Of a stretch of 64,000 nucleotides of DNA, positions 2,221-38,130 are shown in pieces. Location: the NCBI GenBank assembly GCA_023485845.1, contig JAMCZE010000010.1, positions 20,160-84,159 on the forward strand, in the 5' to 3' direction. Positions within the stretch are counted from its first letter, which is position 1; each line of letters begins with the position of its first letter. The notes beneath the pieces were generated by a model. That model saw only the letters and a list, made by a program, of their open reading frames with translations. It was not told where the DNA came from and did not search any database. Origin of the DNA: Patescibacteria group bacterium (GTDB lineage: Bacteria; Patescibacteriota; Microgenomatia; JAMCZE01). The position numbers and the translations under genes were made by a program.

Positions 2221-4777
2221 CTGACCCAGAGGCGGCCGGGGAGTTCCAGTCGGCATTAACCCCAATGGTGATGTTTGTTTCTCCGGTATTGCCGGCCGAG
2301 TCAGTGCCTTTAACCTTGACTGTGTGGGAACTATTTGACAGACAAATCGTCTCATCAAGATTATCGGTGGACTTGCTCACTTTTTGGTTGCCGTCAATAA
2401 AAAGGGTCATGTTGACAATGTCATGAGTGGAAAAAGCCCGGGCTTTAAACTCCACATTGTTATTTGTTAGATTCTGGTGATCCTGCGGCGTGTCAATCAG
2501 GGTGCTCACGGAATCGCTGTTGGCGGTGGAGGTGTCCGTTGGTGGATGATAGCGGGAGTCACCGGCTTGGTTAGCAGCAATCCAATCATCAATGGCTTGC
2601 TGCCAACGGTTGGTTCCGGACGCACTCACCGGATCGTCTTCGGCAATAACAATGAACTCTTTGGAGTCATATTGGCCGGTTTTAACCTGTAAATCATTGG
2701 CCAGTTTCCCATCCGCCTTGGCGATTTTCAGGGTTTTATAGATCGGGCTGACGGCTGTCGGCTCTGTTCCCTTAATAAAATACTCTGCCCGGGTGGGATC
2801 GCTGCCATGGGGCAGGCCGCCGCCTAAAGCATCAACGGTGACCGCCACCACGTCATCCGGTTTTTGGAATGGTTGGTCGGGCTTGCCGGCCAGGGCGGCT
2901 TTCATTATTCGGTTCCAAATTGGAGACGCGCCGGTCACCCCGGAGGCAATTGCCTGGTTCATGACCGTGTTGTCGTTGTTGCCCACCCAAACACCAACCA
3001 CCAGCGAAGGGGTGTAGCCCACCGTCCAGTTGTCACGCTTCAAATCAGTGGTTCCTGTTTTCACCGCCACCGTGTGGCCGGGAATCTGGAGCAAATTAAC
3101 CGGCCCAAAAACCGTTTCCCGCGCGTTATTGTCCGACAGAATATGGGAAATTAAAAAACTTACGCCGGTGGAAAACACCCGCCGGCCAGTGACCTGGTGA
3201 TAGTCATAAAGCACATTGCCTTTACTATCCGTCACTTTGAGAATGGCTACGGGGTCATTCCTCACTCCGCCGGTGGCAAAAACGCCATAAGCGCTGGTCA
3301 GATCCAACAGGCGCACCTCACGGCCCCCCAAAGCCAGGGACAAGCCGACGTTGCTCATGTTGGCCGTTGTCGGCTCCCAAGTGGAAATGCCGGCATTGTA
3401 GCCATTAGTCATAATGTCCTTTAGCCCTGCCAGGGCGGTGAGCTTGACGGCAATGGTGTTAATGGAATTGCCAAGGGCAAAGCGTAGCTGCATCAGCCCG
3501 CGATATTTGCCGTCATAGTTTTCCGGGGTGTAAAGCGCGTTAGGATTAGCCGGGTCACCAGACGGGTAGGAAGTTTTGACGTCCATGAGCATCGTGGCTG
3601 GCGTATAGCCCTTAGTAAAGGCAGTGGCATAAATAAAGGGCTTGCCGGAAGAACCCGGCTGGCGCAGGGCGGTCGCGACATTATAGGAACCGTAGTCCTT
3701 GTCGAAATAATCATAGGACCCGTCCATCGCCAGAATTTCTCCGGTTTGGGGATTAATCGCCACCGCCGCTCCGTTGGTGGCATGGAGATATTTAATTTTG
3801 TTGACCTCCTGGTTAACAATTTGCTCCACTTGTTGCTCTAAATCCAGGTCCAAAGTGGTGGTCACCCGCAAACCGCCGGACTCTACCATCTGTTCCCCAA
3901 AGCGCGCCACCAGCTGGTCCCGGACATAAAAGACAAAATGGGGAGCGTTAATGGTGCCGGAAATCGTGGCAAATTTAACATTTGGCAGCTGCTTATCCGC
4001 ATCCGATTCCTGCTGGGCGGAAATGTAGCCGTCTTCGCGCATCCGGCGCAGCACGTCGCGGGTTCGGTCCACATAGGCCGTCGAGTGTTCACCAAGCGGC
4101 GAGTAGTAGCTGGGGGATTGCGGCAGACCGGCAAGAATTGCCGACTCCACCAGATCCAAATCCTTAGCATCTTTGCCGAAATAAGTTTTAGCTGCCGATT
4201 CAATGCCATAGGCCGAACCGCCATAGGGGATCTCGTTTAAATACATCTGCAGGATTTGGTCTTTAGAAAACTTTTTCTCGATTTCGTTGGCCAGAATAAT
4301 TTCTCTAACCTTGCGCAAAATTGTTTGTTCCGGAGACAAAAGAACATTTTTAACTAATTGCTGGGTGATAGTGGACCCGCCGGACAGACCTTGCAGGGTG
4401 ACAATGTCGAAAGCCGCCCGGGCGATGCCGGTGACGCTGAAGCCACCGTGCTGGTAAAAATTTTTGTCTTCAATAGAGACGGTGGCTTCCTGGACATATT
4501 TAGGAATGTCGGACAATTGCAATGGGATGCGGTTTTCGCCGTTATAAAGATCGTAAAGGACTTTGCCGTTGCGGTCGTAAATCACCGTGGAGAAGCCCTG
4601 CTGACGCACGATTTTGTTCGGGTCGGGCAATCCAAAGGAAAAAACGGTGAAGACCAGGGTGGTCACCAGGAACAAGCCAATGACCCCCAAGAAGGCTCCG
4701 ACCGAGGCCATTTTCAACAATTTCACCCGTCCCACGGGCGAATACCACATCCGTCTGTACCTTGCAAACATACGCAC
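2204..4777 (-). CDS. class A penicillin-binding protein (transglycosylase + transpeptidase), with a C-terminal extension
   Basis: 857 aa; N-terminal TM segment, GT51-like region (EDKNFYQHGGFS, TITQQLVKN), then a transpeptidase region; the C-terminal ~150 aa are Ser/Thr-rich and Ig-like. Confidence 0.85.
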   Translation of the reverse strand: MRMFARYRRMWYSPVGRVKLLKMASVGAFLGVIGLFLVTTLVFTVFSFGLPDPNKIVRQQGFSTVIYDRNGKVLYDLYNGENRIPLQLSDIPKYVQEATVSIEDKNFYQHGGFSVTGIARAAFDIVTLQGLSGGSTITQQLVKNVLLSPEQTILRKVREIILANEIEKKFSKDQILQMYLNEIPYGGSAYGIESAAKTYFGKDAKDLDLVESAILAGLPQSPSYYSPLGEHSTAYVDRTRDVLRRMREDGYISAQQESDADKQLPNVKFATISGTINAPHFVFYVRDQLVARFGEQMVESGGLRVTTTLDLDLEQQVEQIVNQEVNKIKYLHATNGAAVAINPQTGEILAMDGSYDYFDKDYGSYNVATALRQPGSSGKPFIYATAFTKGYTPATMLMDVKTSYPSGDPANPNALYTPENYDGKYRGLMQLRFALGNSINTIAVKLTALAGLKDIMTNGYNAGISTWEPTTANMSNVGLSLALGGREVRLLDLTSAYGVFATGGVRNDPVAILKVTDSKGNVLYDYHQVTGRRVFSTGVSFLISHILSDNNARETVFGPVNLLQIPGHTVAVKTGTTDLKRDNWTVGYTPSLVVGVWVGNNDNTVMNQAIASGVTGASPIWNRIMKAALAGKPDQPFQKPDDVVAVTVDALGGGLPHGSDPTRAEYFIKGTEPTAVSPIYKTLKIAKADGKLANDLQVKTGQYDSKEFIVIAEDDPVSASGTNRWQQAIDDWIAANQAGDSRYHPPTDTSTANSDSVSTLIDTPQDHQNLTNNNVEFKARAFSTHDIVNMTLFIDGNQKVSKSTDNLDETICLSNSSHTVKVKGTDSAGNTGETNITIGVNADWNSPAASGSASPCS

Positions 4778-4799: not shown

Positions 4800-5126
4800 A
4801 TGACCAAGAAACAGCAACCACCCAGCCTAGCCGATATCAGAAAATTATTCCAAGATAATAACAAAAGCCTTTTTAGTTTTATTGAGGAGCGGCTTAGGGC
4901 TAATGACCAAATCATTCTAGCGGCTTTCGACCGGGATATTCGATTGCTGGAAGGGAGACTAAATAGTTTAGAGACAAAAGTAGATAAGGGATTTGACGAA
5001 GTCAACAGGCGTTTTGACATCAACGACGACACTCATCAAGAAATCCTTCAAGTGGTCAGCGAGATGACGGACAAAAAAATTAAAGATCACGAGCGCCAAA
5101 AGCACATATTTTCGACTGTCAATTGA
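4800..5126 (+). CDS. small coiled-coil protein, paralog family member 1
   Basis: ATG at 4800 after the PBP start; shares the motif LE.KVDKGF.EVNRRFD with the ORF at 16442. Confidence 0.45.
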   Translation: MTKKQQPPSLADIRKLFQDNNKSLFSFIEERLRANDQIILAAFDRDIRLLEGRLNSLETKVDKGFDEVNRRFDINDDTHQEILQVVSEMTDKKIKDHERQKHIFSTVN

Positions 5127-5150
5127 CAACGAGAATTTTTCTGATAAAAT
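5123..5150 (+). promoter_or_regulatory. sigma70-like promoter (TTGACA, 16 nt spacer, TAAAAT) for the T-box leader
   Basis: Read directly from the sequence upstream of the leader. Confidence 0.4.
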
Positions 5151-5156
5151 AGGCAG

Positions 5157-5480
5157 ACAAGTTAATATTTAAAGGCTTTGATGGAGAAGCAGTAGAAACT
5201 TTAAGGTGACACCAGAGAAGAGGCGGTTGCTGCAAGACCTCTCGCACTTAAAGAATCGAATTACTCTCCGGAGCTGAAAGACTGAAATCACAGTAAGTTT
5301 TTCCGGGTAAGCCCGTGATAGCAGAAAAGCTGTGTCATTGAAAGATAGAGCAGTTTGAGGCTAATGGACGATCCCGCCTCAGCGGGATTTTTTAGTGCTT
5401 TAGTAAAGTAAGGTGGTACCGCGAGAAACCTCGCCCTTACCAATCGACCATGTTCATGGTTGGTGAGGGTGAGGTTTTTT
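5157..5480 (+). promoter_or_regulatory. T-box riboswitch leader (Tyr-specific inferred), with Stem III, antiterminator and intrinsic terminator
   Basis: T-box motif AAGGUGGUACCGCG at 5410-5423. Antiterminator: AAGG pairs with CCUU and GCGAG with CUCGC, flanking a UGGUACC bulge. A 13-bp terminator stem (5429-5441 with 5462-5474) is followed by T6 (5475-5480). Stem III hairpin cccgcctcagcggg at about 5372-5386. Candidate UAC specifier at 5262-5264. Confidence 0.7.
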
Positions 5481-5487
5481 GTGTTTT

Positions 5488-5574
5488 ACACGGGTGGCAG
5501 AGTGGTCAATTGCAACTCTCTGTAAAAGAGTCGCCCTAACAGGCTGCGAGGGTTCGAACCCCTCCCCGTGTACC
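5488..5574 (+). tRNA. tRNA-Tyr (anticodon GUA), long variable arm
   Basis: Hand-folded cloverleaf: 7-bp acceptor stem ACACGGG/CCCGTGT, D-arm with GG, anticodon stem ACTCT/AGAGT with loop CUGUAAA (GUA), a 16-nt variable arm, T-arm GAGGG-TTCGAAC-CCCTC, discriminator A, then CC (the terminal A of CCA is not encoded). Confidence 0.85.
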
Positions 5575-5587
5575 TATGAAGAAAGAT

Positions 5588-6505
5588 ATGGATACACTCA
5601 ATCATTCACAAACAATGAGCCACGAAGTGAAACGACTGTTTCCCGACACCAGGGAGCCAGAAAAGTTCGGTCAACTTTTTGGCATCACAGAACTGGGAAT
5701 GGGGCTAAGTTGCTCGCCGGAAACGATTAGGCGAGTCGGGTGGTGGTGGCTAGAGATAATGAAGTTAGGAATTAGCAATATGAAGACAAACGAAATAAAG
5801 CATGCCATTCGTAAAACCGCTTTGCTTGCCACCGAATCGGGCCAGTCCGTAGAATTTATTTCCACTCGCAGTCCCGATTTCATTCTTCATTTTACCGAGC
5901 ACCGTGAAGGACAACCAGAGCTTGGGCAGCGATCAATAGTGGCTCTCAATAAGCTTACCGAGATTAAACAAATATCAGAAAGATTTATACCAACCAAAGC
6001 AACGGTTTTTCTGGCCGATATTGCGCTGGCAAACGCTGATGATCCCCAGAACGGAATTCCAAGTAATTTCGCCGATGACTTATTAGATAGCAATTTGAAA
6101 GCGCTGCAATTGGCTTCTGCTAAAATTGACCCGTCGCTGGGCATCTCAAGACTGGGAGATATTGTCCACCCGTCCGGGAAGACCCGGAGAGACATTGTCG
6201 GGGTTGATGGGAATGGCAGTGCCTTCCGACAACTTACAGCCGATGCTTTTACGCATATTCGGGCGGTGGTCAAGGAAAGCTTGGAATTTCATCAAAAACT
6301 CGGTTGGTCTGAACGAGATGTTGAGGAACGAACAACGAAATTGGCAAAAGTTATGGCTACTGCTGGCCAAGCGTTTCATGCACAAAGGCCACGACCAATC
6401 ATGCTCTTTATGGAATCGTTTGTTAAAAGGGCTGCTTTTAATAACCTTCTAATTGACAGACGGGATCCACTTCCAATAATCTGCTTTAACGATCTGCGAC
6501 GATAG
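5588..6505 (+). CDS. hypothetical protein (no recognizable domain) located between tRNA-Tyr and tyrS
   Basis: 309-aa ORF in the tool frame; I chose the ATG at 5588, preceded by purine-rich GAAGAAAG, because the ATG at 5576 abuts the tRNA 3' end. Confidence 0.5.
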   Translation: MDTLNHSQTMSHEVKRLFPDTREPEKFGQLFGITELGMGLSCSPETIRRVGWWWLEIMKLGISNMKTNEIKHAIRKTALLATESGQSVEFISTRSPDFILHFTEHREGQPELGQRSIVALNKLTEIKQISERFIPTKATVFLADIALANADDPQNGIPSNFADDLLDSNLKALQLASAKIDPSLGISRLGDIVHPSGKTRRDIVGVDGNGSAFRQLTADAFTHIRAVVKESLEFHQKLGWSERDVEERTTKLAKVMATAGQAFHAQRPRPIMLFMESFVKRAAFNNLLIDRRDPLPIICFNDLRR

Positions 6506-6522
6506 CATATAATAGTGGTGTC

Positions 6523-7668
6523 ATGGATAAGATTGACGAATTGCTAGCCAGGGGGGTGGACAAAATTTATCCTTCAAAAGAGGCCCTGGAAAAGGTTCTG
6601 CGATCAGGGAAAAAACTTAGACTTTACCAAGGGTTTGATCCTACGGGGACCCAACTTCACATTGGTCATCTTGTTGGTTTCCGCAAATTACGACAATGGC
6701 AAGATCTTGGACACCATGTGATTTTTCTGATTGGTGACGGCACCGGCCAGGCCGGTGACCCTTCTGGCAAGAGAGGAGCCAGAGAAAAATTCATGGAGAG
6801 AGATGAATTACGGGCAAACGCCAAGGACTACCTTATGCAGGTTGCCAAGATCGTTAATTTCGAGGGATCTAATCCGGTGGAAATCTTATACAATAGCGAC
6901 TGGCTTAATGAGTTAAAATTGGTTGATATTCTTCACATCGCCCAGAATTTCTCCGTTCAACAATTGATCGAACGGGATATGTATCAGGAACGTCTCAAAA
7001 GGGGAGAGCAAATTAATTTACGGGAGTTCCTCTATCCGCTTCTTCAAGGCTATGACTCTGTCGCAATGGACGTTGACTTGGAGCAGGGGGGGACTGATCA
7101 AACCTTTAATATGTTGGCCGGGCGGACGCTGGTTAAAAATATGCTCGGAAAGGAAAAGTTTGTTATGACCACACCCTTGTTGACAGACGCTGAGGGAAAC
7201 AAAATTGGGAAAAGCGAAGGAAATGTTATTGGAGTAACTGACCCACCAAGCGAACTTTTTGCTAAAATTATGTCCCTAAAAGATAGTGCTATTATAAATT
7301 GCTTCACCTTAATTACTGCATTGCCTCTCAATAGTGTCGCGCAGAAAGAAAATCGGCTAAAAGATGGTGAGAACCCAATCAATCTTAAAAAAGAATTAGC
7401 CGCACAGATTGTTTCTGAAGTGCATTCGCCGGCGGCGGCGAAGAAGGCGCAGGAGGAATTTGAAAAGACGTTTCAGAAAAGGGAAGTGGCGGCGGATTTG
7501 ATTGAAGAGGTTTCGGCGGCGCCGGGAAAGATCACTGACCGGTTGGTGGAGGCGGGGATTGTGGCCAGCAAATCCGAGGCCAAACGGCTGGAAGACCAGG
7601 GGGCAATTGAAGAAATTGAACCAAATCTATATCGGATCGGAAAAAGGAAATTCATCAGATTCAAATGA
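6523..7668 (+). CDS. tyrS: tyrosine--tRNA ligase
   Basis: GFDPTGTQLHIGH (HIGH motif), KIGKS (KMSKS-type motif), C-terminal S4-like domain. Confidence 0.9.
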   Translation: MDKIDELLARGVDKIYPSKEALEKVLRSGKKLRLYQGFDPTGTQLHIGHLVGFRKLRQWQDLGHHVIFLIGDGTGQAGDPSGKRGAREKFMERDELRANAKDYLMQVAKIVNFEGSNPVEILYNSDWLNELKLVDILHIAQNFSVQQLIERDMYQERLKRGEQINLREFLYPLLQGYDSVAMDVDLEQGGTDQTFNMLAGRTLVKNMLGKEKFVMTTPLLTDAEGNKIGKSEGNVIGVTDPPSELFAKIMSLKDSAIINCFTLITALPLNSVAQKENRLKDGENPINLKKELAAQIVSEVHSPAAAKKAQEEFEKTFQKREVAADLIEEVSAAPGKITDRLVEAGIVASKSEAKRLEDQGAIEEIEPNLYRIGKRKFIRFK

Positions 7669-27837: not shown

Positions 27838-28206
27838 AAAAGATGGCGCTTTTATTGTTCTCTTTAAGGATAATACCCGGCAGGAAGTTTTTTTGGTTCG
27901 CCGGTCAGACATTCCCATCCCCGTATGACTTATTTATTCGAGGGTAGGGTTGTCTCCGGAAAGTTCCGCCCAGAATTTCCCGGCTGTCTGGGAAAGTGGT
28001 TTTCTATAGCCAGCCTCCCCGCCGACATCGTCCCACGAACTAAGACCAAAATCTTTGATGTTATCAATCATCGTTCAAGCGCTCCGTTCCAAAAAACAAT
28101 TCAGGAAACCAGTTTCGCCTTAAACTTTCATATTTTCCTTCGCCATCCCCACCAAGCAAGCAAGTTTCTTCTCTCCTGTTGGCTAAAATCCCACCTTACT
28201 GGATAA
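27838..28206 (+). pseudogene. possible degenerate/frameshifted NUDIX hydrolase remnant
   Basis: The first frame gives MKKDGAFIVLFKDNTRQEVFLVRRSDIPIPV* (NUDIX N-terminus-like); the next frame has PEFPGCLGKW, resembling WEFPGGKVE; no intact REx2EE box. Confidence 0.3.
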
Positions 28207-28224
28207 GTGAAGAAAAGCAGTCGG

Positions 28225-28260
28225 GTTGGGGAGCTTCAAACGCCACAAAAGTGATATAAT
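28225..28260 (+). promoter_or_regulatory. extended -10 promoter (TGaTATAAT) for the NTase-NDK operon
   Basis: gtgatataat at 28251-28260, 12 nt upstream of the ATG at 28273. Confidence 0.4.
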
Positions 28261-28272
28261 GAGCTATAGGAT

Positions 28273-29514
28273 ATGGCCCTACGCAATCAAGAACTCTTTA
28301 ATTTTGATAGTGACATCCAAAAAACTAGTGATTTTGTCGCAATAGCTGCGGAGACATCTGGAACAATTGCCATTCTTAAAGGTGGTGCCGTCCGTGATCA
28401 ACTATGGAACTACTATCACGGAACAGATTTCAGACCGAAAGACCTAGACTTTTTTGTCGTCTCGAATATCCACTTGGTTCATCGCCAACTGCAAGACAAG
28501 GGCTTTAACCTGGTCGAAAGAAGAAAACGGAAGGGCACCCCAGTTTTCAAATACAAAAGTCCTTTATCTGGAACGGACTTTGAATTAGGGACGCTCATTG
28601 GCAGACCAAAAAAATATAGCCAAAGGGATTCATTACAAGATTTATTGTACATTGACGCAGAAAGCACAGATCTAACAATTGACGCACTATCGTTAACGTT
28701 AAGACCCAGCAAATATTCTTGGGACGAGAGCGAAGTAAATGACCCAATCGGAGCAATGCGGGATATTAAAAATGGTGAAATAAAAACACCCCATCCGGCT
28801 ACATTTTTTAGGGCACCCGACGCAATGTTAAAAGCGGTGCGGCTTGCTTCCCAATTGGATGCAACATTACCAATTGAGACATTGGCTAGATTATCAGAAG
28901 CATGCAGCTTAGTTCCGAAAGTACCTTTTAAGCTTATTTATAAAGAGGCACATAGAATTGTAGAATTTGGGGGAACTGACATTTCCCAAGAGGTGCTCCA
29001 TGGCACAGGAATAGTTGACGCCCTGTTTCCGGGCCGAACGCTTGATGCCGCCGATTTATTTAAGCAATGGTTTATAACTGATGCCCCAGACTACACGATT
29101 GTGATGCTAAAACCGGACGGAGTTGAGAAACAGTTGCAAATTGAGGTCATCAAGGGGCTGCAAGAGTTAGGACTAACATTGGCAGCAAGAAAAAGATTAA
29201 AACTGGAGGTTCCGGACATAGATAAAATCTACACAAATGTTAGAAATGAATGGCTCATACCGAAAATCCAGGCGCATCTTACATCGGGCGAGAGCGAGGC
29301 AATGATTTTTTTGGGAGATGGCTCGATACAAATAGCCAGAAAATTTATTGGAGCTACGGCGTTAGGTGAAAGACAAGCAGGTGGGCTGCGTGGTAAATAC
29401 TCCAATGATTTTATTAAAAATATCGCGCACTCCCCGGACAGTCAGGAAGAACTAAACAGAACGGCAAAGGTCTTATTCCCAACTTTACCAATAGCAAACC
29501 AAGATGCCGAATGA
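28273..29514 (+). CDS. fusion protein: class II CCA/poly(A) polymerase-type nucleotidyltransferase head domain + C-terminal nucleoside-diphosphate kinase domain
   Basis: N-terminal GGAVRDQLW...KDLDFFVV (GGxVRD...DxD) and RDSLQDLL...DLTIDAL (RRD-FTINAL-like motif B). C-terminal TIVMLKPDGVE... and NIAHSPDS (the NDK catalytic His in the NxxHxSD context). Confidence 0.7.
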   Translation: MALRNQELFNFDSDIQKTSDFVAIAAETSGTIAILKGGAVRDQLWNYYHGTDFRPKDLDFFVVSNIHLVHRQLQDKGFNLVERRKRKGTPVFKYKSPLSGTDFELGTLIGRPKKYSQRDSLQDLLYIDAESTDLTIDALSLTLRPSKYSWDESEVNDPIGAMRDIKNGEIKTPHPATFFRAPDAMLKAVRLASQLDATLPIETLARLSEACSLVPKVPFKLIYKEAHRIVEFGGTDISQEVLHGTGIVDALFPGRTLDAADLFKQWFITDAPDYTIVMLKPDGVEKQLQIEVIKGLQELGLTLAARKRLKLEVPDIDKIYTNVRNEWLIPKIQAHLTSGESEAMIFLGDGSIQIARKFIGATALGERQAGGLRGKYSNDFIKNIAHSPDSQEELNRTAKVLFPTLPIANQDAE

Positions 29515-30445
29515 AGTAGTTACTATTTTAATAGTAACCAGCAATTCTCTCCCTTATCTAGAGTTAACTGTTAGATCAATCGGGGAAAATACAAAAATTC
29601 CCTACAAATTACTTGTTGTCGACAATGGATCAGCTTCTGATACAAAGTTGTATTTGCAAAAAAATAATATTCCCTATCTAAGAAACCCCAAAAATGTTGG
29701 CTACATCAAAGCGCAGTGGCAAGGATTCAGAAAAATAACAACCAAATATGTTTGTTCGTGTAATGATGATATCATCGTCACTGAAAATTGGCTAACTAAA
29801 TTACTAGAAATTATTAAGACAGACAAAAGAGTAAAAATCGTTGCCCCGATAAAATGGAGCTCTCGAATGATCTATCCCTATGACAAGAGACGCAACTGCC
29901 GACAGGTTTGGGAAGAGATAAAATTGAAGTCCGATGGTAAAGACCTAAATAAATTAATCGATAAATTTACTTTGGGAAAGAGGCTTGAGATTTTTTCCGA
30001 AGACCTAAAACGAATTAATGGACTTCGGAACGTTTTTGTAGAATCACCTCCGGATTTTGTCCCGGGATTTTGTTTTCTGACGGAGAAAAAATTTTGGGAT
30101 AGGCACGGCGGGTTTGTTAATACAGATTTTAAAATATATGGGACAGAGGATGCTGAACGGTGTTGGCGTTTAGGAATCCTGGGGTACAAGATAATCAAAA
30201 CCCCCAGTGTTTACGTTCACCATTTTGAAGGAGGGTCTGTTGGATTAAACAAAGTACCTACAAACAAAGTATTAATCTATAATAATAGGATTCTGCTTAA
30301 AAAGATGGGGAAATACTTCTGGAATTGGCTGGAAAAGGAACAAACAATAAAACCACTTGGGGAAATCATAAAAGACCACTGGTTCGTTGGTGAATTGCTT
30401 AAGAATTCAGGGCATGATAACATACCTTATGAGCCCAGTAATTAA
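29504..30445 (+). CDS. family 2 glycosyltransferase
   Basis: ILIVTSNSLPYL...LLVVDNGSASD and a downstream DDD-type acidic motif; overlaps the previous gene by 11 nt. Confidence 0.8.
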   Translation: MPNEVVTILIVTSNSLPYLELTVRSIGENTKIPYKLLVVDNGSASDTKLYLQKNNIPYLRNPKNVGYIKAQWQGFRKITTKYVCSCNDDIIVTENWLTKLLEIIKTDKRVKIVAPIKWSSRMIYPYDKRRNCRQVWEEIKLKSDGKDLNKLIDKFTLGKRLEIFSEDLKRINGLRNVFVESPPDFVPGFCFLTEKKFWDRHGGFVNTDFKIYGTEDAERCWRLGILGYKIIKTPSVYVHHFEGGSVGLNKVPTNKVLIYNNRILLKKMGKYFWNWLEKEQTIKPLGEIIKDHWFVGELLKNSGHDNIPYEPSN

Positions 30446-31082
30446 AAAGTGCTTACCAATATTGGATAAAGCCTTCAGGGAATCGAACGAGTTGGCAGGT
30501 GGCATGAACTATCGCTATCTCCATGGTCTAAGAACAATGCTTGCCTGTGAACAGATTATTAATTCCCCAGAACTTCGAAACAAAAAAATAGACAGGGAGT
30601 CACTGTTTATTGCTGCACTATTTCATGATATTGGCAAGGTAATTCATATCGAACAGGATGGGACGCTTCAGGGAGACAGATCAGGTGATGCTATTTCTCA
30701 CGAGGAAATGGGCGCAAGGATTCTTAAAGATTACATAGGAAATCTGCTGTCGGAAAAGCAGGTCGAGAAGATCGCAAACATGATTCGTAACCAGCATGAT
30801 CCCAAACCGGATGATTATGAGATTAAAGTCCTCAGTGATGCCGACATATTGGATTCAATCGGATTAATAAATGTCTGGCGGATGTTCACTTACTCCGGTA
30901 AAAAGTCCCGATCACTTGAGGAAACCCTGGACTATTATAAGAGTACAAGTGGGGATAAAACCCGCCAAGAGAAAATTTATTTTTCTTTTACTAAGAGGGT
31001 CGCCAACGACCGGAGAAGTCGTTTGAAAAAGTTTATCAAAGAGTTTATAAAAGAGTATAAATCTAAAGACCTAGGGGTATGA
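30429..31082 (+). CDS. HD-domain phosphohydrolase
   Basis: LFHDIGK (the H...HD motif) and downstream D...D; 17-nt overlap with the GT2 gene. Confidence 0.75.
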   Translation: MSPVIKKCLPILDKAFRESNELAGGMNYRYLHGLRTMLACEQIINSPELRNKKIDRESLFIAALFHDIGKVIHIEQDGTLQGDRSGDAISHEEMGARILKDYIGNLLSEKQVEKIANMIRNQHDPKPDDYEIKVLSDADILDSIGLINVWRMFTYSGKKSRSLEETLDYYKSTSGDKTRQEKIYFSFTKRVANDRRSRLKKFIKEFIKEYKSKDLGV

Positions 31083-32260
31083 AAGTTGTCCTTCTTCTGT
31101 TTAACATGCCCCTATCAAAACCCTGTGGAAGTGCCCGTTTCACAGTCCAAGTTGCAAATAAATTAACAGACTTGGGCCATGACGTGACGGTGATAGCTAA
31201 CACAGACGCCGACAACACAAAATATGATTTCCGGTATGTGCAGGTCAATACTCCACCATACGGAAGCTGGAAAAGCTGCCTGACGAATCCAGACAGTTTT
31301 CTGGAAACGACGCATAAATACGCCCAGACCTTGTTTGACCTGCAGGTTAAATATGGGTTTGACATTTTGCATGTCCAACACCTCCTGTTCTCAACACTTG
31401 TAGCAACAATATATAAAGACATACATTGCAGGCCGTTTGTCGCTACCTGTCATGGAACAGAAACTTTCGAGACGGGAAATAATACTAAGATGAAAGGCTA
31501 CTTTCGCTATGCAGCTAACGCCGACTTCATTACTGCCGACAGCAACTCAATCGTTGGTGACGTTAGAAAGTTCGTAAAATACCCGGCTTCAAAAATCGCA
31601 GTCATTAACACGGCTGTGGATGTTAACAAATTTAAATTTATTAAATCGACTAGGCGCGCAATTCGCAATAGGCTGGGGTTTAGCACAAATGACAAAGTAA
31701 TTCTATTTGCCGGAAGGTTAGTTAAAGAAAAGGGGGTTCTCGAAATTCCAATTATCTTTAAAGAATTAATAAAACCAAACAAGAACATAAAATTGCTAAT
31801 TGTCGGTGATGGGCCAGAAAAGAAACAGCTGCTTAGTAATCTCCACGGGCTCAAGGTGCCACACTCTTTGTTTAGGCTAACCGGTTTCATTTCTCAGGAT
31901 TTAATGCCTGATTATTATATGGCCGGAGACATCTTTTTGATGCCATCCCTTTGGAATGAACCGTTTGCAACTAGCGCACTGGAAGCAATGGCTTGCAAGT
32001 GCCCGGTCATCGCTTATGACAATGGCGGAATTGCGCATGCCCTAAAAGATAACGGGTATAAATGGCTTGTATGCAGACGGGGAAATAAAGCAGAGCTTAT
32101 TAACAAAACAACACAGCTATTAACAGACAAAGGGAGACTAAGCGGTTATCAAAAATCATTAAGAGCTTTTGTCCAAAATAATTACACCTGGGATATAAGC
32201 GTTGCTAAGCTAATTAAAATCTACGAGGAATGCATAGCTAAAACCAAACATGAATATTAA
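31079..32260 (+). CDS. family 4 (GT-B fold) glycosyltransferase
   Basis: GT4 architecture, with the EPFATSALEAMACKCPVIA motif (the E-x7-E region). Confidence 0.8.
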   Translation: MKVVLLLFNMPLSKPCGSARFTVQVANKLTDLGHDVTVIANTDADNTKYDFRYVQVNTPPYGSWKSCLTNPDSFLETTHKYAQTLFDLQVKYGFDILHVQHLLFSTLVATIYKDIHCRPFVATCHGTETFETGNNTKMKGYFRYAANADFITADSNSIVGDVRKFVKYPASKIAVINTAVDVNKFKFIKSTRRAIRNRLGFSTNDKVILFAGRLVKEKGVLEIPIIFKELIKPNKNIKLLIVGDGPEKKQLLSNLHGLKVPHSLFRLTGFISQDLMPDYYMAGDIFLMPSLWNEPFATSALEAMACKCPVIAYDNGGIAHALKDNGYKWLVCRRGNKAELINKTTQLLTDKGRLSGYQKSLRAFVQNNYTWDISVAKLIKIYEECIAKTKHEY

Positions 32261-33179
32261 ATATAAAATTCAGTCATGCGAAAGAATAATCTCATTTCAA
32301 ACGCATGATAATGATGTTATCAATTATTTGTCCAACGACCCACTGCCATTAAATCATATTCCATGCTATAAAATTTCGCTGGGAAAATCCGCAAGTGATT
32401 TTTCTTTCGTCCATAAATTTGGTGATAAATCCAGTCTGGTGTGTAATCTTCAAAAATCGGAGGTTGTGCTGACGGCTGCAAATAAAATTCCCGGAGGGCA
32501 ATTTGTGTTTGCATTTTTGCCAATTTTTGAACGGCTATATGAGTCAAGAGGGCTATATGGTCTCCATGCGGGATTAGTAATCCTAAATGGATGTGCCGTA
32601 TTTCTTATAGGAGACACAAAAGCTGGTAAGTCGATAATTTCGGCAAAGCTACATTACGATTTTGGCGCGGATTTCGTGACTGACGAGAGAAGTATTATCA
32701 GTACTGCAGACAGTCAAATTTTCGCCGGCTCAAAAATCCTCTCCCTAAGAGAGAGTGCCATTAAAGCTGCTGATATTAAAGACATTGAAAAGTATCGGCT
32801 TTCAGACAGCAACAGCACAAGTAAAAACTACTACAAGCCTAAATCCAATCTTAGTCTCCCAATAAAGATTGAAGGGGCCCTGTTTATCTTCCCCCATTTT
32901 GGAAATACCGAGCTGACAACCGAGATACCGAGCGATTTTGTTCTAACTTATATGCTGTACGAGAACATTACCGCTACTATACGTTCATGCATATCAATAT
33001 TTGTGCCTGAATCAGTAGGAATGCCGTCAATGGACAATGATGCCCTTTCTACAAGACGAGCTCATGACATAAACAAACTCCTATCTAGGATTCCACATAA
33101 ATGTTTCGACATCACTGGTAGTCTAGACGCAATATGCAGCAAGATTTACAAAGAGGCAAATTTACAAAATTTTTCTTGA
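32250..33179 (+). CDS. HPr kinase/phosphorylase C-terminal-domain-like P-loop protein (HprK-related kinase)
   Basis: GLHAGLVILNGCAVFLIGDTKAGKSIISAKLHYDFGADFVTDE resembles the HprK C-domain P-loop (GvLi.G.sG.GKSe.aL.L...G..lv.DD). Confidence 0.55.
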   Translation: MNIKYKIQSCERIISFQTHDNDVINYLSNDPLPLNHIPCYKISLGKSASDFSFVHKFGDKSSLVCNLQKSEVVLTAANKIPGGQFVFAFLPIFERLYESRGLYGLHAGLVILNGCAVFLIGDTKAGKSIISAKLHYDFGADFVTDERSIISTADSQIFAGSKILSLRESAIKAADIKDIEKYRLSDSNSTSKNYYKPKSNLSLPIKIEGALFIFPHFGNTELTTEIPSDFVLTYMLYENITATIRSCISIFVPESVGMPSMDNDALSTRRAHDINKLLSRIPHKCFDITGSLDAICSKIYKEANLQNFS

Positions 33180-33195
33180 CAATCCGGACCCAATA

Positions 33196-33300
33196 ATGAA
33201 CGACACGATTGCCCCTGCCAATCTCATTCTCGCCGTGACTGTTGCCTTCATTGGTCTTATTGTCAACCGAAATATTGAAGCACAAAAAAGAACTCTCTAG
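33196..33300 (+). CDS. small single-TM peptide (34 aa) distal in the operon
   Basis: MNDTIAPANLILAVTVAFIGLIVNRNIEAQKRTL; it lies between the HprK-like gene and the terminator. Missed by the ORF track. Confidence 0.3.
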   Translation: MNDTIAPANLILAVTVAFIGLIVNRNIEAQKRTL

Positions 33301-33365
33301 CAAATATTGCCTTTCTCGACACCCCCCCTTCCTGATATACTTTGTTCCGGCGAACGGGGGGGTTA

Positions 33366-33396
33366 CCCCGGGTTTATCTCGGGGCGGGGATTTTTA
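33366..33396 (+). terminator. intrinsic terminator candidate (GC hairpin ccccg/cgggg followed by a T5 tract)
   Basis: Read directly; it is preceded by a C7...G7 hairpin at 33322-33362. Confidence 0.35.
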
Positions 33397-33420
33397 GTTT
33401 TTTTGTGATATAATTTCTCC

Positions 33421-33819
33421 ATGGACCAGAAAACAGTCGTAAAGAATTGGCTTGATGGTGCAAATGAGGCTTGGAAGGCAATATCGAAATTTGCCGGTTC
33501 CAAAGAGGGACATCTTGCCTTGTTTTTTCTTCATTTATCATTAGAAAAAACCCTAAAAGGGTTGTATTTAGCGAAATTTAATGAACCGGCGCCTTTTACA
33601 CACGATCTGTTACAATTGACCGACAAGATTGGACTTAAAACAACGGACGTTGAGAAGAAACAATTAGCAGAAATTTCCACTTTTAACATTGCTGCCAGAT
33701 ATGACGATTACAAGTATCGCCTCCAAGAAAGGGCGACTTTTGAATTCGTCAAAGAGTGGACGGCAATCGGTGAAAATTTGAGAAACAAGTTTATAAAAGA
33801 AATGGAAAAATATGAATGA
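33421..33819 (+). CDS. HEPN-domain protein (PF05168-like)
   Basis: HLSLEKTLKGLYLAK...FTHDLLQL...IAARY pattern; 8-nt overlap with the downstream NTase gene. Confidence 0.7.
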   Translation: MDQKTVVKNWLDGANEAWKAISKFAGSKEGHLALFFLHLSLEKTLKGLYLAKFNEPAPFTHDLLQLTDKIGLKTTDVEKKQLAEISTFNIAARYDDYKYRLQERATFEFVKEWTAIGENLRNKFIKEMEKYE

Positions 33820-34120
33820 CGCTTTAAACAAAGCCAAAAAATTTGTTGTCCAGTTAAGAAATGATGGGGTGGAAGTTGACTCTGCTTTTTTGTTTGGTTC
33901 TTATGCCAAGGGAACACAGCACAAGGACAGTGATATTGATGTTTGCATTGTTTCTCAAAGATTTGGGAAGGATTATATCGAAGAAATGGTGGACTTGCGG
34001 ATGAAAGCTTTAAAAATTGATATTCGTATTGAACCAATTCCGTTAACCCCGAGGGATCTGGCTGACCCCTACAGTTCGCTTTCAACAGAAATCCGCAATA
34101 CCGGTTTGGCCATTACCTAA
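33812..34120 (+). CDS. minimal nucleotidyltransferase (the MNT partner of the HEPN protein)
   Basis: LFGSYAKGTQHKDSDIDVCIV motif. Confidence 0.75.
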   Translation: MNDALNKAKKFVVQLRNDGVEVDSAFLFGSYAKGTQHKDSDIDVCIVSQRFGKDYIEEMVDLRMKALKIDIRIEPIPLTPRDLADPYSSLSTEIRNTGLAIT

Positions 34121-35441: not shown

Positions 35442-37559
35442 GTGAAGCAATTACTTCTTTGGATAGCGTTTACTTCGTTTACCCTGTTAGGGTTAACATT
35501 CACTAACCCTAAGATTATCTTGGCTGGTTGCGCCTGGAAAATGACTGGTGATCCTCACTGCGAAAACTGTGCAAATGGGACAACAGGTGGCTTTTGTACC
35601 GTTAATGGCAGTACCGCCTTTGTGGGAGCTTATTGTGTGGGAGGTAATCCTTATAACTCTTGCTATTGGGGAGAATTCGACTGTAGCTCTCAGACTGAGG
35701 CCCAATCCCAATGTAATGCTGGAGGGGGAGGGACAACTGGGCCATCTTGTCCTGGTGCCTCGCCGGTATCCTGTGATAACAGCACCTGTGCCACAACGGG
35801 GGGGTGTAATTGTAACGACTACGACACTCAAGCATCCTGCCTAGGACAGCCGCCTTATTCCTGGCACAGCACCTGCCAATGGAACGGCAGTATCTGCACC
35901 GGAAAATACTGTTGCGTGGAACATCCAGATGTGGGCAACGGTGCCGGGCAGGGGTGCGGGTATTATAATCAGGTTCGGGCCACCTGCGTTGGGGCTGGTT
36001 GTCACTGGACTCCGGCGCCAAATTCCTGCGCGCCGGGATCATCCTGCGCCGGCGGCAGTTGCACCACCGAGTGCGGGGACACCGCTTCCTGCACTGTCAC
36101 CCCTTACACACCCATTTACCCTTTCGGCACCATTTCCGAGCTTAATCCCACTTTCACCTGGAACGTGGTAGTGCCGGCAGACTATAACGGCACGAACTAC
36201 TACACCAATTTAGCTGTCTATGCCGGCAGCAATTGCCCCGGGAGTCCGATCTTTTTTAACCAACCGGCCATGTCCGACACGTCAAAAAGTTGGTCCGTGA
36301 TTTCACCAAACCAATATCTTTCACCAAATACGCAATACTCCTGGAACTTATACGAAGGCTATAACGGTGTTGGACATCCTGAAAGCACTTCGGCATGTTT
36401 GAATTTCCAGACAGCAGCCTCCTGCACGGTATCTCTCTCTGCCAGCCCCACCACGATTGTTAACAGCGGCACAGCTACGGCCACCGTTTATCCCACCGGC
36501 AACGCCACTGTCACCGCTGTCAATTGGAATTTTAATCCCACCGGGGTGGTGAGCACCCCCGCTCCCAGCACCACCCCCACCGGCAGCAGTGTGCCGGCTT
36601 CGTTTAGTCCCAACTCCGGCGGCGATCTTCTCTCCGGCCTGGTTGCTTATTGGAAACTGGACGGCGGCAACGTGGGGGACAACAGCGTTCCCGCTCAGAA
36701 CTCCGTTTCCGGAACATACGGCCCGGCTAGCGGAACCACCGTCATCGGGCCTTCGTCCAGCCCAGCCAGCAAGATCGGCAATGCCCGGTCTTTTAACGGC
36801 ACCAGCGACATTATCACCGCTGCCAACCCCCAAGCGTTATCCGGATCCCGCACAATTGCTGCCTGGGTCTATCCCACTAACACCAGTAGCAAGGCCAACC
36901 CGGTGCTTGTTGGCGGCACTGCCAGCTTAAATAATGGCGATCTATTTGGTGTCTCCGGCTCCGGGGCGGTGGGCTGTGCCGGAGCCGGAAAAGTTTATTT
37001 TGATCATTGGGGCTACACCTGCAATTTATCCACCGGCACGGTGCCACTTAACACCTGGAGCCTCATCATGATGACCTTTGACAACACCACCAAAAACATT
37101 AATTTCTATATTAATAATCAACCGGCCGGGACAATTCTCGGCTCCACCGGCGCTGCCACTTACAACGCCAACCAAATATGGCTTGGTGGCAACCCCTACA
37201 GTGGCAGCAGCACCACCGGTTTATCCTTCGCCGGCAGCATTGATGAAATAGGAATTTGGAACCGAGTATTGTCCAGCGGAGAAATCCAGGACCTCTACCA
37301 CGGCGGGGCGGGCAACACCTACCAGCCGGCAGCCACGGTTTGGACGGCCAGCTCAACGTTGACAAACCAAAACAGCGGCACGACCACCACCAGTTTCACC
37401 GCCACGGCCACCCTGGACACCGGCGGCAGCTGCACCTCCAGCCCGGTTGCCCTTAGCACTGTCGGCACCTTTTTTCAGACCTACGGGGGAGACGTGATTG
37501 GTAAGGGAACCGTTAACGACAGCCACTTGCCATCCGGTGCTTACATTTCGGGAAATTAA
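35442..37559 (+). CDS. secreted Cys-rich protein with a C-terminal LamG/concanavalin-like lectin domain
   Basis: Signal peptide; more than 40 Cys in the first 270 aa; C-terminal LVAYWKLDG...NARSFNG...IAAWVYP...SIDEIGIWNRVLSSGEI (LamG-like). Confidence 0.7.
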   Translation: MKQLLLWIAFTSFTLLGLTFTNPKIILAGCAWKMTGDPHCENCANGTTGGFCTVNGSTAFVGAYCVGGNPYNSCYWGEFDCSSQTEAQSQCNAGGGGTTGPSCPGASPVSCDNSTCATTGGCNCNDYDTQASCLGQPPYSWHSTCQWNGSICTGKYCCVEHPDVGNGAGQGCGYYNQVRATCVGAGCHWTPAPNSCAPGSSCAGGSCTTECGDTASCTVTPYTPIYPFGTISELNPTFTWNVVVPADYNGTNYYTNLAVYAGSNCPGSPIFFNQPAMSDTSKSWSVISPNQYLSPNTQYSWNLYEGYNGVGHPESTSACLNFQTAASCTVSLSASPTTIVNSGTATATVYPTGNATVTAVNWNFNPTGVVSTPAPSTTPTGSSVPASFSPNSGGDLLSGLVAYWKLDGGNVGDNSVPAQNSVSGTYGPASGTTVIGPSSSPASKIGNARSFNGTSDIITAANPQALSGSRTIAAWVYPTNTSSKANPVLVGGTASLNNGDLFGVSGSGAVGCAGAGKVYFDHWGYTCNLSTGTVPLNTWSLIMMTFDNTTKNINFYINNQPAGTILGSTGAATYNANQIWLGGNPYSGSSTTGLSFAGSIDEIGIWNRVLSSGEIQDLYHGGAGNTYQPAATVWTASSTLTNQNSGTTTTSFTATATLDTGGSCTSSPVALSTVGTFFQTYGGDVIGKGTVNDSHLPSGAYISGN

Positions 37560-37560
37560 T

Positions 37561-38130
37561 ATGACAAATTTTCAAAAAGGACTTATTTTCGGAACAGTGA
37601 TACTCCTCGTCCTGGCCGCTGCCAGCGGGGGATGGTTGTTAACACGAAACCGGGTGGCTGGCCCAATTCAAAAACCAATGGTTCCAATCACCGTCACCGC
37701 CTGGAAAACCTATTTTAATAGAGATTTCAGTTTTCAATATCCCGCCGACTGGCAAATTGCCACCAGTGAAGCCAAAATTTCAGCTGATTCTGCACCTATG
37801 AAGATTGAGACTGTCTCCAATGCCGTTTTGTCAGGAAACACTCCACCGGAGGGGGAAACTGTCACTATTCAGCAAATTTCCCTCACTGATGTACAGTTTC
37901 CACCGACGATGTTTAATCAGGCTGCTAAAATTAAACTAGGGGGACAGGAGATTCAAACCTACGCCACCAAGAATAACGGTGCCTCCACCAACTATCTCCG
38001 GTTTATCTATAAAGGCACCAGCAAAAACAACTATCTGTTTTCATTTGACTATTATAATGGCCAGCACCCTAACCGGGATTATCCCAAATTGTCTGATCAG
38101 ATTATTAAATCTTTTGTCGCCAGGCCATGA
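37561..38130 (+). CDS. membrane-anchored hypothetical protein
   Basis: MTNFQKGLIFGTVILLVLAAASGGW signal anchor; ATG at 37561, immediately after the upstream stop. Confidence 0.5.
   Translation: MTNFQKGLIFGTVILLVLAAASGGWLLTRNRVAGPIQKPMVPITVTAWKTYFNRDFSFQYPADWQIATSEAKISADSAPMKIETVSNAVLSGNTPPEGETVTIQQISLTDVQFPPTMFNQAAKIKLGGQEIQTYATKNNGASTNYLRFIYKGTSKNNYLFSFDYYNGQHPNRDYPKLSDQIIKSFVARP

Follow-up and report, generated by a model that had tools for sequence, protein, structure and literature searches.

A predicted tyrosine-specific T-box leader immediately upstream of the tRNA-Tyr gene in a Patescibacteria genome

Results

A Putative Tyr-Specific T-Box in Front of the tRNA-Tyr Gene

A 64,000-nucleotide stretch of DNA from a Patescibacteria group bacterium (GenBank assembly GCA_023485845.1, contig JAMCZE010000010.1), which we refer to as the window, carries what is probably a transcriptional (class I) T-box leader of a bacterium belonging to the candidate phyla radiation (CPR), specific for tyrosine and having as its first regulated gene the one that encodes its own ligand, tRNA-Tyr(GUA). 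An earlier note on this DNA had read such a leader from the letters alone, ahead of tRNA-Tyr(GUA), an open reading frame (ORF) and tyrS. Throughout, coordinates are window positions, and L-numbers designate the loci (contigs or genomes) used for comparison. The window was screened with all Rfam families using Infernal and with ARAGORN, and promoters were sought by a consensus scan that covers sigma-70-type sites only. Just two Rfam matches in the whole 64 kb exceed the gathering score, a T-box leader and a tRNA. The T-box match (RF00230), on the forward strand at 5169-5441, scores 108.7 bits (gathering score, 93; E 4.3e-23) and covers model positions 1-219 of 219, which bears out the claim of a T-box at this place. 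In shuffled versions of the window (n = 100), the expectation for the combined pattern of a T-box motif and a tRNA T-loop is 0.00.

The leader is composed of Stem I, with its K-turn, AG bulge, distal loop and specifier loop, followed by Stem II, Stem IIA/B, Stem III and the antiterminator. The Rfam alignment places a UAC (Tyr) specifier codon at 5262-5264, precisely where the earlier note had its candidate, in a loop reading GAA-U-UAC-U (5258-5265), and this codon is complementary to the GUA anticodon (5522-5524) of the tRNA-Tyr encoded downstream. The AG bulge (AGAGA) and the distal loop (GGUUGCUGCAAG), the elements of the platform for the tRNA elbow, align to the RF00230 consensus. The T-box sequence itself, AAGGUGGUACCGCG, spans 5410-5423 and contains the expected UGGN bulge, in which N is U and is matched by discriminator base A73. 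The antiterminator (5410-5438), found as it had been written in the earlier note, is formed by AAGG (5410-5413), the bulge UGGUACC (5414-5420), GCGAG (5421-5425), AAAC, CUCGC (5430-5434) and CCUU (5435-5438). The UGGU part of this bulge (5414-5417) is the complement of the ACCA terminus of tRNAs whose discriminator is A, the base that tRNA-Tyr has at the corresponding position (5572). An intrinsic terminator (5429-5480) overlaps the 3' strand of the antiterminator, with which it shares CCUCGCCCUU, and sequesters CUCGCCCUU, which makes the two structures mutually exclusive. While this and the T6 run closing the terminator (5475-5480) had been correctly predicted, the terminator stem comprises not 13 bp but ~23 pairs with one bulge. 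Its minimum free energy is -42.6 kcal/mol (z = -7.69), and none of 200 shuffles folds as well. Every feature of the T-box family that can be read from a sequence is present in the leader.

Ahead of the antiterminator and terminator proper, the inner hairpin of Stem III and its U6 run (5370-5393) resemble an intrinsic terminator or a pause site. This motif consists of a GC-rich hairpin of 5-6 bp, followed by U5-7 (U6 at 5388-5393 in the window) and then RUGG. Hairpin and U-run are kept, with compensatory changes in the stem, in 17 of 18 CPR Tyr T-box leaders, the sites being those of the window, L002 (294-317) and their equivalents in L017, L020, L041, L127-L138, L144 and L145.

Transcription of the leader is predicted to start near 5157 from a near-consensus promoter, P1 (5123-5150, forward strand), which consists of a TTGACA -35 box (5123-5128), a 16-nt spacer and an extended -10 box, TGaTAAAAT (5142-5150), and which scores 11/12, with TG, in the consensus scan. 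Promoters of this kind (TTGACA/TGnTAnAAT) also lie ahead of the T-box in L002, L020, L041, L127 and L144. The same scan detected no promoter-like site in 5150-5826, thus none between the leader and the tRNA.

The tRNA-Tyr(GUA) gene (5488-5574, forward strand) begins 7 nt past the T6 run that ends at 5480, right after the terminator as had been claimed. It was identified both by Infernal (55.9 bits, 5488-5572) and by ARAGORN (tRNA-Tyr(GTA), 5488-5574), and it specifies a class II tRNA, with a long variable arm, an A1-U72 first pair and discriminator A73, followed by CC. The full CCA is not encoded, and CCA-adding activity is therefore needed. This is the one tRNA found in the 64 kb available, copy number being known for the window only.

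Several observations concern this tRNA and its relatives. The A1-U72 first pair (5488/5571) is found in the lineage that shares the following ORF (the window and L001-L003); G1-C72, the usual first pair of bacterial tRNA-Tyr, occurs in L134, L020 and the other relatives. In the anticodon loop of the L002 tRNA-Tyr, position 33 is C and not U. Elsewhere in the window, an ORF at 28273-29514 (forward strand) encodes the head domain of poly(A) polymerases/CCA-adding enzymes (PF01743) fused to a nucleoside diphosphate kinase domain (PF00334). It lies inside a low-GC stretch (28000-34000; GC 0.40-0.41 vs ~0.49) and is adjacent to genes for glycosyltransferases and an HD-domain protein.

The Layout Recurs in Other CPR Genomes

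Judged by the loci with which it was compared, the window is one member of a class and not a one-off. The succession of a T-box(UAC), tRNA-Tyr, variable ORFs and tyrS is found in at least 15 other CPR loci, the tyrosyl-tRNA synthetases (TyrRSs) of which are 42-62% identical to that of the window. For example, L002, whose ORF is 57% identical to the window's ORF309 (see below), exhibits the same promoter, a T-box (90.1 bits, E 2.5e-20) with a UAC specifier, a terminator with T6 and a tRNA 8 nt further on, and its helices differ from those of the window by compensatory changes. In L001 we find the 3' half of the terminator, T6 and an 8-nt gap, and in L070 again the order promoter, T-box(UAC), terminator, short gap and tRNA-Tyr. 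All three divergent ORF309 homologues (57-59% identity) have tRNA-Tyr directly upstream and tyrS downstream on the contig, and a more distant homologue (34% identical) lies between tRNA and tyrS in L134.

A scan of the Joint Genome Institute (JGI) metagenome collection with a DNA pattern made for Tyr (T-box motif ... GTAAA ... T-loop) returned 14 loci, 12 of which consist of a T-box(GAA-A/U-UAC), a terminator and tRNA-Tyr(GUA), the last two being 3-12 nt apart if L133 is excepted. Downstream on the same strand, 10 of these 12 have tyrS (42-62% identical), the remaining two having too little downstream DNA. The gap between terminator and tRNA is 2-12 nt in L002, L070 and L127-L139 (the value for L133 is artefactual), and the terminators are equivalent but of different sequence in all relatives. 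A full canonical tRNA-Tyr(GUA), scoring 50-59 bits, is present in the window and at least 12 relatives. In two Gottesmanbacteria loci (L020 and L041) and a 1.23-Mb Patescibacteria genome (L144), the order is PBP1A (reverse strand), T-box(UAC), terminator, an extra element, tRNA-Tyr, variable ORFs and tyrS, the extra element being tRNA-like or made of repeated tRNA 5' fragments. The genes between tRNA and tyrS vary by lineage and include ORF309-type genes, S-adenosylmethionine (SAM) methyltransferases, MetE-like proteins, pyridoxal phosphate (PLP) enzymes of Cys/Met metabolism, M20 peptidases and Asp/Glu racemases. The flanks of the host locus (pheT, PBP1A on the reverse strand, tyrS, recG, rpmF, nusB, rnc, rpsP) are syntenic in Gottesmanbacteria, Saccharimonadales and other CPR genomes. 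Contigs identical to the window are present in the data sets SRR10278331 and SRR10267473.

From Stem I to Stem IIA/B, an RNAalifold analysis of 11 CPR leaders reveals double compensatory changes in 19 of 27 pairs. In the same 11 leaders, the flanking helices covary around an invariant S-turn, AG bulge, distal loop and GAA-N-UAC, and the CPR relatives whose Stem I is full length all have GAA[A/U]UAC. This heavy covariation, together with the recurrence of the layout, points to a functional, evolving T-box subfamily and not to a chance match.

Some members of this subfamily are strongly reduced. The leaders of L020 (4465-4679, reverse strand), L041 and L129 have lost Stem II and the distal, platform-bearing part of Stem I but retain the K-turn, specifier loop, Stem IIA/B, Stem III and antiterminator, and in this they recall the T-boxes with a short Stem I known from Actinobacteria. 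In L020 (~4349-4430), L041 (~3705-3780) and L017, all on the reverse strand, the interval from the T-box terminator to the following gene contains degenerate tRNA-like elements. These have an acceptor stem of 7 bp, a T-arm and discriminator A, but they lack a D-arm and have a long covarying hairpin in place of the anticodon arm. Neither ARAGORN nor Rfam calls a tRNA on these degenerate elements, the best Rfam match for L020 being tRNA-Sec (16 bits, E 2.4). In L144 (2700-2847, forward strand), a 5' fragment of tRNA-Tyr instead occurs twice in tandem.

T-Boxes Ahead of Other tRNA Genes

A more general pattern (T-box motif ... tRNA T-loop), applied to one genome per GTDB species, produced at least 120 matches. 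Among the matches listed, ~17 are real junctions between a T-box and a tRNA or tRNA-like element and most others are chance matches in high-GC coding DNA, so that no prevalence can be derived from them. Strong T-boxes (129-152 bits) are found, among these listed matches, in tRNA operons of uncultured Bacilli, Clostridia, Erysipelotrichaceae and Tenericutes metagenome-assembled genomes (MAGs), where they precede tRNA-Asn (L125 at 6699-7302, L011, L026, L035, L045, L060 and L083; the specifier reads AAC in L125). These operons consist of tRNA-Ile, tRNA-Glu, the T-box and then one to four tandem tRNA-Asn(GUU) genes, with no protein gene. Also among the listed matches are T-box-like leaders with a few nucleotides from terminator to tRNA-Arg(UCU), which is often accompanied by tRNA-Arg(GCG) and tRNA-Arg(UCG) (L067 at 1320-1685, L106, L048 and L077). 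They score below the Rfam gathering score, with an AGA specifier recognized by eye in L067, and they belong to Dojkabacteria and Saccharibacteria MAGs and to contigs binned as Pseudomonadales or Thermoplasmatales, which are probably mis-binned. In a Ruminococcus flavefaciens MAG (RUG10802; L114, 7010-7997), a T-box of 94.7 bits is followed by a tRNA-like element and then alaS (PF01411, E 5e-89). This element carries G3.U70, the identity pair for alanine, and has 38 nt inserted where the anticodon arm would be, and the specifier frame is ambiguous (GCU/CUU). As far as these loci can tell, a cognate tRNA or tRNA-like element right behind the T-box terminator is a recurrent design.

ORF309 Defines a Small Family with a Predicted Class Ic Synthetase Fold

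ORF309 (5576-6505, forward strand) encodes 309 aa if translated from its first ATG (5576) and 305 aa if translated from the second (5588), which is conserved. The first ATG is 3 nt past the tRNA discriminator, and the next ATG lies 2-4 nt past the discriminator in the window, L001-L003, L133, L135, L136 and L138. While the earlier note had rightly seen an ORF here, it had counted 306 aa and considered the product unknown, which our analysis revises. ORF309 has no match in Pfam or NCBIfam at E ≤ 0.1, including the PF00579, cyclodipeptide synthase (CDPS) and PvcA (DIT1_PvcA) families; its family profile matches no PDB sequence, its comparison with the window TyrRS by hhalign is not significant (E 0.28), and neither a HIGH nor a KMSKS motif is present in the family alignment. 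The top Foldseek match is PIsnA with bound L-tyrosine (E 1.9e-3). Structural comparison thus indicates that ORF309 is a class Ic aminoacyl-tRNA synthetase (aaRS)-fold protein (TyrRS/PvcA/cyclodipeptide synthase) of a small new family, the likeness being in fold only. Such a fold fits the tyrosine or tRNA-Tyr theme of the locus, and the protein may have a tyrosine-modifying, a Tyr-tRNA-dependent or another activity.

The family is sparse, with four close homologues among 5.8 billion proteins and only 29 relatives at E ≤ 1e-3 in a profile search of 1.84 billion representatives. Invariant in its alignment are P100, N173, W244, G264 and R285, and the residue ahead of P100, right after the first β-strand, is Ser in close members (S99 in ORF309) and Cys in distant ones. 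In two of the 29 relatives, P0135 (470 aa) and P0145 (503 aa), the ORF309-like domain (~50-287) is joined to an adenylate kinase domain at the C terminus, a hint that the activity of the family may depend on nucleotides. For the ORFs that occupy the equivalent place in Gottesmanbacteria (356 aa in L020, 320 aa in L041), neither BLASTP nor hhalign detects any similarity to ORF309, and homology is thus not supported.

tyrS Has a Promoter-Like Site of Its Own

As had been claimed, tyrS lies downstream (6523-7668, forward strand) and encodes a bacterial-type TyrRS of 381 aa (PF00579, E 1.7e-66; TIGR00234, E 3.9e-93), which is 100% identical to an NCBI protein from a "Patescibacteria group bacterium" MAG. 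A promoter-like site, P2 (6486-6513, forward strand), has a TTAACG -35 box, 16 nt and an intergenic TATAAT -10 box (6508-6513) and ends 9 nt before the tyrS ATG. The TATAAT is kept 7-10 nt ahead of the tyrS start in L001, L002 and L003, and L134 has TAAAAT. Most likely, then, tyrS has a constitutive promoter of its own, and P2 would yield a leaderless or near-leaderless mRNA. Since tyrS has its own -10 box, the T-box would add to its expression and not solely determine it. Another candidate, TTGACA-16-AATAAT at 6453-6480, was rejected as a coding by-product because it coincides with codons of the conserved LLxDRRDP motif and has no counterpart in L001. Downstream of tyrS, the search for a terminator gave nothing convincing (z -1.66).

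Leaderless transcription units may be widespread in the host. No convincing Shine-Dalgarno sequence was found at any of the 42 ORF starts in the window (ORFs of ≥200 aa), and 10 of these 42 have a -10 box (at least 5/6 TATAAT-like) ending 4-12 nt before the start, vs 3.3% at random positions, which suggests that such units are common in this organism. The missing Shine-Dalgarno sequence of ORF309 was discarded as proof of a leaderless mRNA made by processing, because no ORF start in the window has one.

Away from this locus, the window encodes two large proteins (705 and 1293 aa; 35442-42008, forward strand) with repeated Laminin_G_3/concanavalin-like lectin domains. They are probably surface proteins, of a kind often seen in episymbiotic CPR.

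Discussion

We infer that the T-box gates tRNA-Tyr and ORF309 by tRNA-dependent read-through. Because there is no promoter-like site after the T-box, and because the gap between terminator and tRNA is only 2-12 nt, tRNA-Tyr would be made solely by read-through. Transcription would start at P1, and the nascent leader would bind tRNA-Tyr via the UAC specifier and the Stem I platform. If this tRNA is uncharged, its ACCA end would pair with UGGU and stabilize the antiterminator, allowing the polymerase to pass the terminator; if it is charged or absent, the terminator would form. The read-through transcript would carry tRNA-Tyr and ORF309 and continue into tyrS. Processing by RNase P and at the 3' end would then free tRNA-Tyr, leaving an mRNA that starts with 5'-CCUAUG, a start that fits the conservation of an ATG 2-4 nt past the discriminator. 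The -10 box of tyrS would provide a basal, T-box-independent supply of TyrRS.

In such a system, the tRNA already in the cell would decide the fate of each transcript, the product of read-through being more of the same tRNA. When the pool is small relative to demand or poorly charged, the uncharged fraction would rise, and with it the synthesis of tRNA, ORF309 and extra TyrRS; the co-induced and basal TyrRS would then recharge the pool and close the switch. The loop is thus expected to be homeostatic and not runaway, with tRNA-Tyr synthesis tied to the ratio of charged to uncharged tRNA. The feedback envisaged in the earlier note, read-through into both tRNA-Tyr and TyrRS, is supported by the arrangement of the sequence elements, except that the P1 transcript would not be the only source of tyrS.

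Several findings weigh against this scenario. The base 3' of the specifier is U, where a purine is usual. A default-OFF switch with a very stable terminator looks risky ahead of what is possibly the only tRNA-Tyr gene, and, given the conserved -10 box of tyrS, TyrRS is not under T-box control alone. The T-boxes of relatives such as L002 (90.1 bits) and L020 (56.5 bits) do not reach the Rfam gathering score. Finally, when six TyrRS relatives were sampled by protein similarity, four had a gap of 38-213 nt upstream of tyrS with no T-box and no tRNA, and one, L144, had the full module. The sixth and closest (L145, 74% identity) has a T-box and a terminator but no tRNA, and together with the four others it implies that the tRNA is dispensable at that position.

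This last finding bears on an alternative that we regard as rather unlikely, in which the T-box regulates the protein genes (ORF309 and tyrS), the tRNA or its remnant is mainly a handle for RNA processing, and feedback on the tRNA is incidental because another tRNA-Tyr gene supplies the cell. The pairing of T-box and tyrS in L145 would make sense on these terms, as would the degenerate elements of L020, L041 and L017, which keep only acceptor stem and T-arm at the same position, the repeated tRNA 5' fragments of L144 and the G3.U70 element between T-box and alaS in L114. The start of the next ORF fits as well, its ATG being 3 nt past the discriminator for the window and L001-L003 and about as near in L133, L135, L136 and L138, and processing would leave a near-leaderless mRNA in a host that makes no evident use of Shine-Dalgarno sequences at the 42 window starts. 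A mere handle, however, would not call for the full canonical tRNA-Tyr(GUA) that the window and at least 12 relatives carry, nor would it explain the Asn and Arg cases, where only tRNA genes lie downstream and there is no mRNA to process; moreover, CPR genomes usually have one gene per tRNA species.

The remaining alternatives concern the leader itself. It is very unlikely that tRNA-Tyr is transcribed from an unrecognized promoter in the 3' part of the leader, with a start inside the terminator, which then cannot form, and with an adjacency that merely reflects genome compaction. CPR genomes are indeed compact, and our promoter scan was crude and confined to sigma-70-type sites; yet 5151-5487 contains no promoter-like hexamer pair and is fully taken up by conserved T-box and terminator structure, and the 2-12-nt gap is kept across lineages with different terminator sequences. 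We find it hardly credible that the T-box is a relic in decay and has lost its ability to switch, with constitutive read-through or constitutive termination. Although T-boxes as reduced as that of L020 exist in some relatives, and the base after the window specifier is not a purine, the RF00230 match covers the whole model and exceeds the gathering score, and none of specifier, AG bulge, distal loop, T-box bulge and terminator is damaged. Both the 11-leader alignment and the comparison of L002 with the window reveal extensive compensatory changes, and strong promoters are conserved upstream. A tRNA-gating T-box thus accounts best for the locus in our judgment.

A broader proposal, which we put forward tentatively as plausible but short of probable, is that T-boxes gating the gene of their own ligand form a general class of regulons (Tyr and Arg in CPR, Asn in Firmicutes-like MAGs), that the T-box-linked gene is the sole tRNA-Tyr gene in reduced CPR genomes, with the pool size set by the charging ratio, and that ORF309 is a class-Ic-aaRS-derived enzyme acting on tyrosine or Tyr-tRNA-Tyr. 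If T-box control of a tRNA gene is real, it closes a loop on the ligand of the sensor itself and allows the supply of one tRNA species to be matched to demand directly, with no transcription factor. If, in addition, the linked gene is the only one for tRNA-Tyr, a bootstrapping problem arises, since an essential tRNA would be under a default-OFF switch, and this is experimentally tractable. CPR bacteria, in which regulation is almost unknown, would use T-boxes with lineage-specific traits (the Stem III hairpin with its U-run, a reduced Stem I), and a small unannotated family of TyrRS-fold proteins would be genetically tied to tRNA-Tyr and TyrRS.

T-boxes are the textbook example of RNAs that sense the charging of a tRNA and thereby control genes for aaRSs, biosynthesis and transport. 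The transcription unit of the window includes a gene of this usual target class, tyrS, but its first regulated gene is a tRNA. Outside Firmicutes, T-boxes are known in Actinobacteria, Chloroflexi, Deinococcus-Thermus and some Deltaproteobacteria. The occurrence outside Firmicutes-like lineages that the earlier note had singled out is therefore not new in itself, while the occurrence in CPR seems unreported. What seems new is T-box control of tRNA genes and the presence of T-boxes in CPR; provisionally, and within the partial coverage of the full-text literature searched, which included TBDB, Wels 2008 and work on streptococcal transcriptomes and on a staphylococcal T-box, neither was found.

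Three known systems invite comparison. Co-transcription of tRNA and protein genes, with release of the tRNA by RNase P and 3' processing, is familiar from the tyrU...tufB operon of E. coli and from mitochondrial "tRNA punctuation." As in the proposed CPR unit, a single primary transcript there contains both tRNA and mRNA, and the end of the mRNA is set by processing of the tRNA, but those transcripts are not gated by a riboswitch that senses the same tRNA. The predicted fold of ORF309 is that of cyclodipeptide synthases, PvcA/IsnA isonitrile synthases and the catalytic domains of TyrRS/TrpRS, with none of which it has detectable sequence similarity; it lacks the HIGH and KMSKS motifs of TyrRS/TrpRS (subclass Ic) and matches no Pfam family of CDPS or PvcA.

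The closest counterpart of the leader is that of Bacillus subtilis tyrS, reportedly the founding member of the T-box family (RF00230), described by Grundy & Henkin in 1993. It acts by transcriptional attenuation, as is predicted for the leader in the window, and the two share a Stem I with UAC, K-turn, AG bulge and distal loop, a Stem II and a Stem IIA/B, a UGGU bulge to pair with the ACCA end of uncharged tRNA-Tyr, mutually exclusive antiterminator and terminator structures, and tyrS in the unit. In contrast to the B. subtilis leader, the first gene in the window is the cognate tRNA, 7 nt past the terminator, followed by a TyrRS-fold paralogue, and tyrS has an additional predicted promoter. 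The host is a member of the CPR/Patescibacteria, whose leaders display a conserved hairpin and U-run in Stem III and, in several members, U or C as the base 3' of the specifier.

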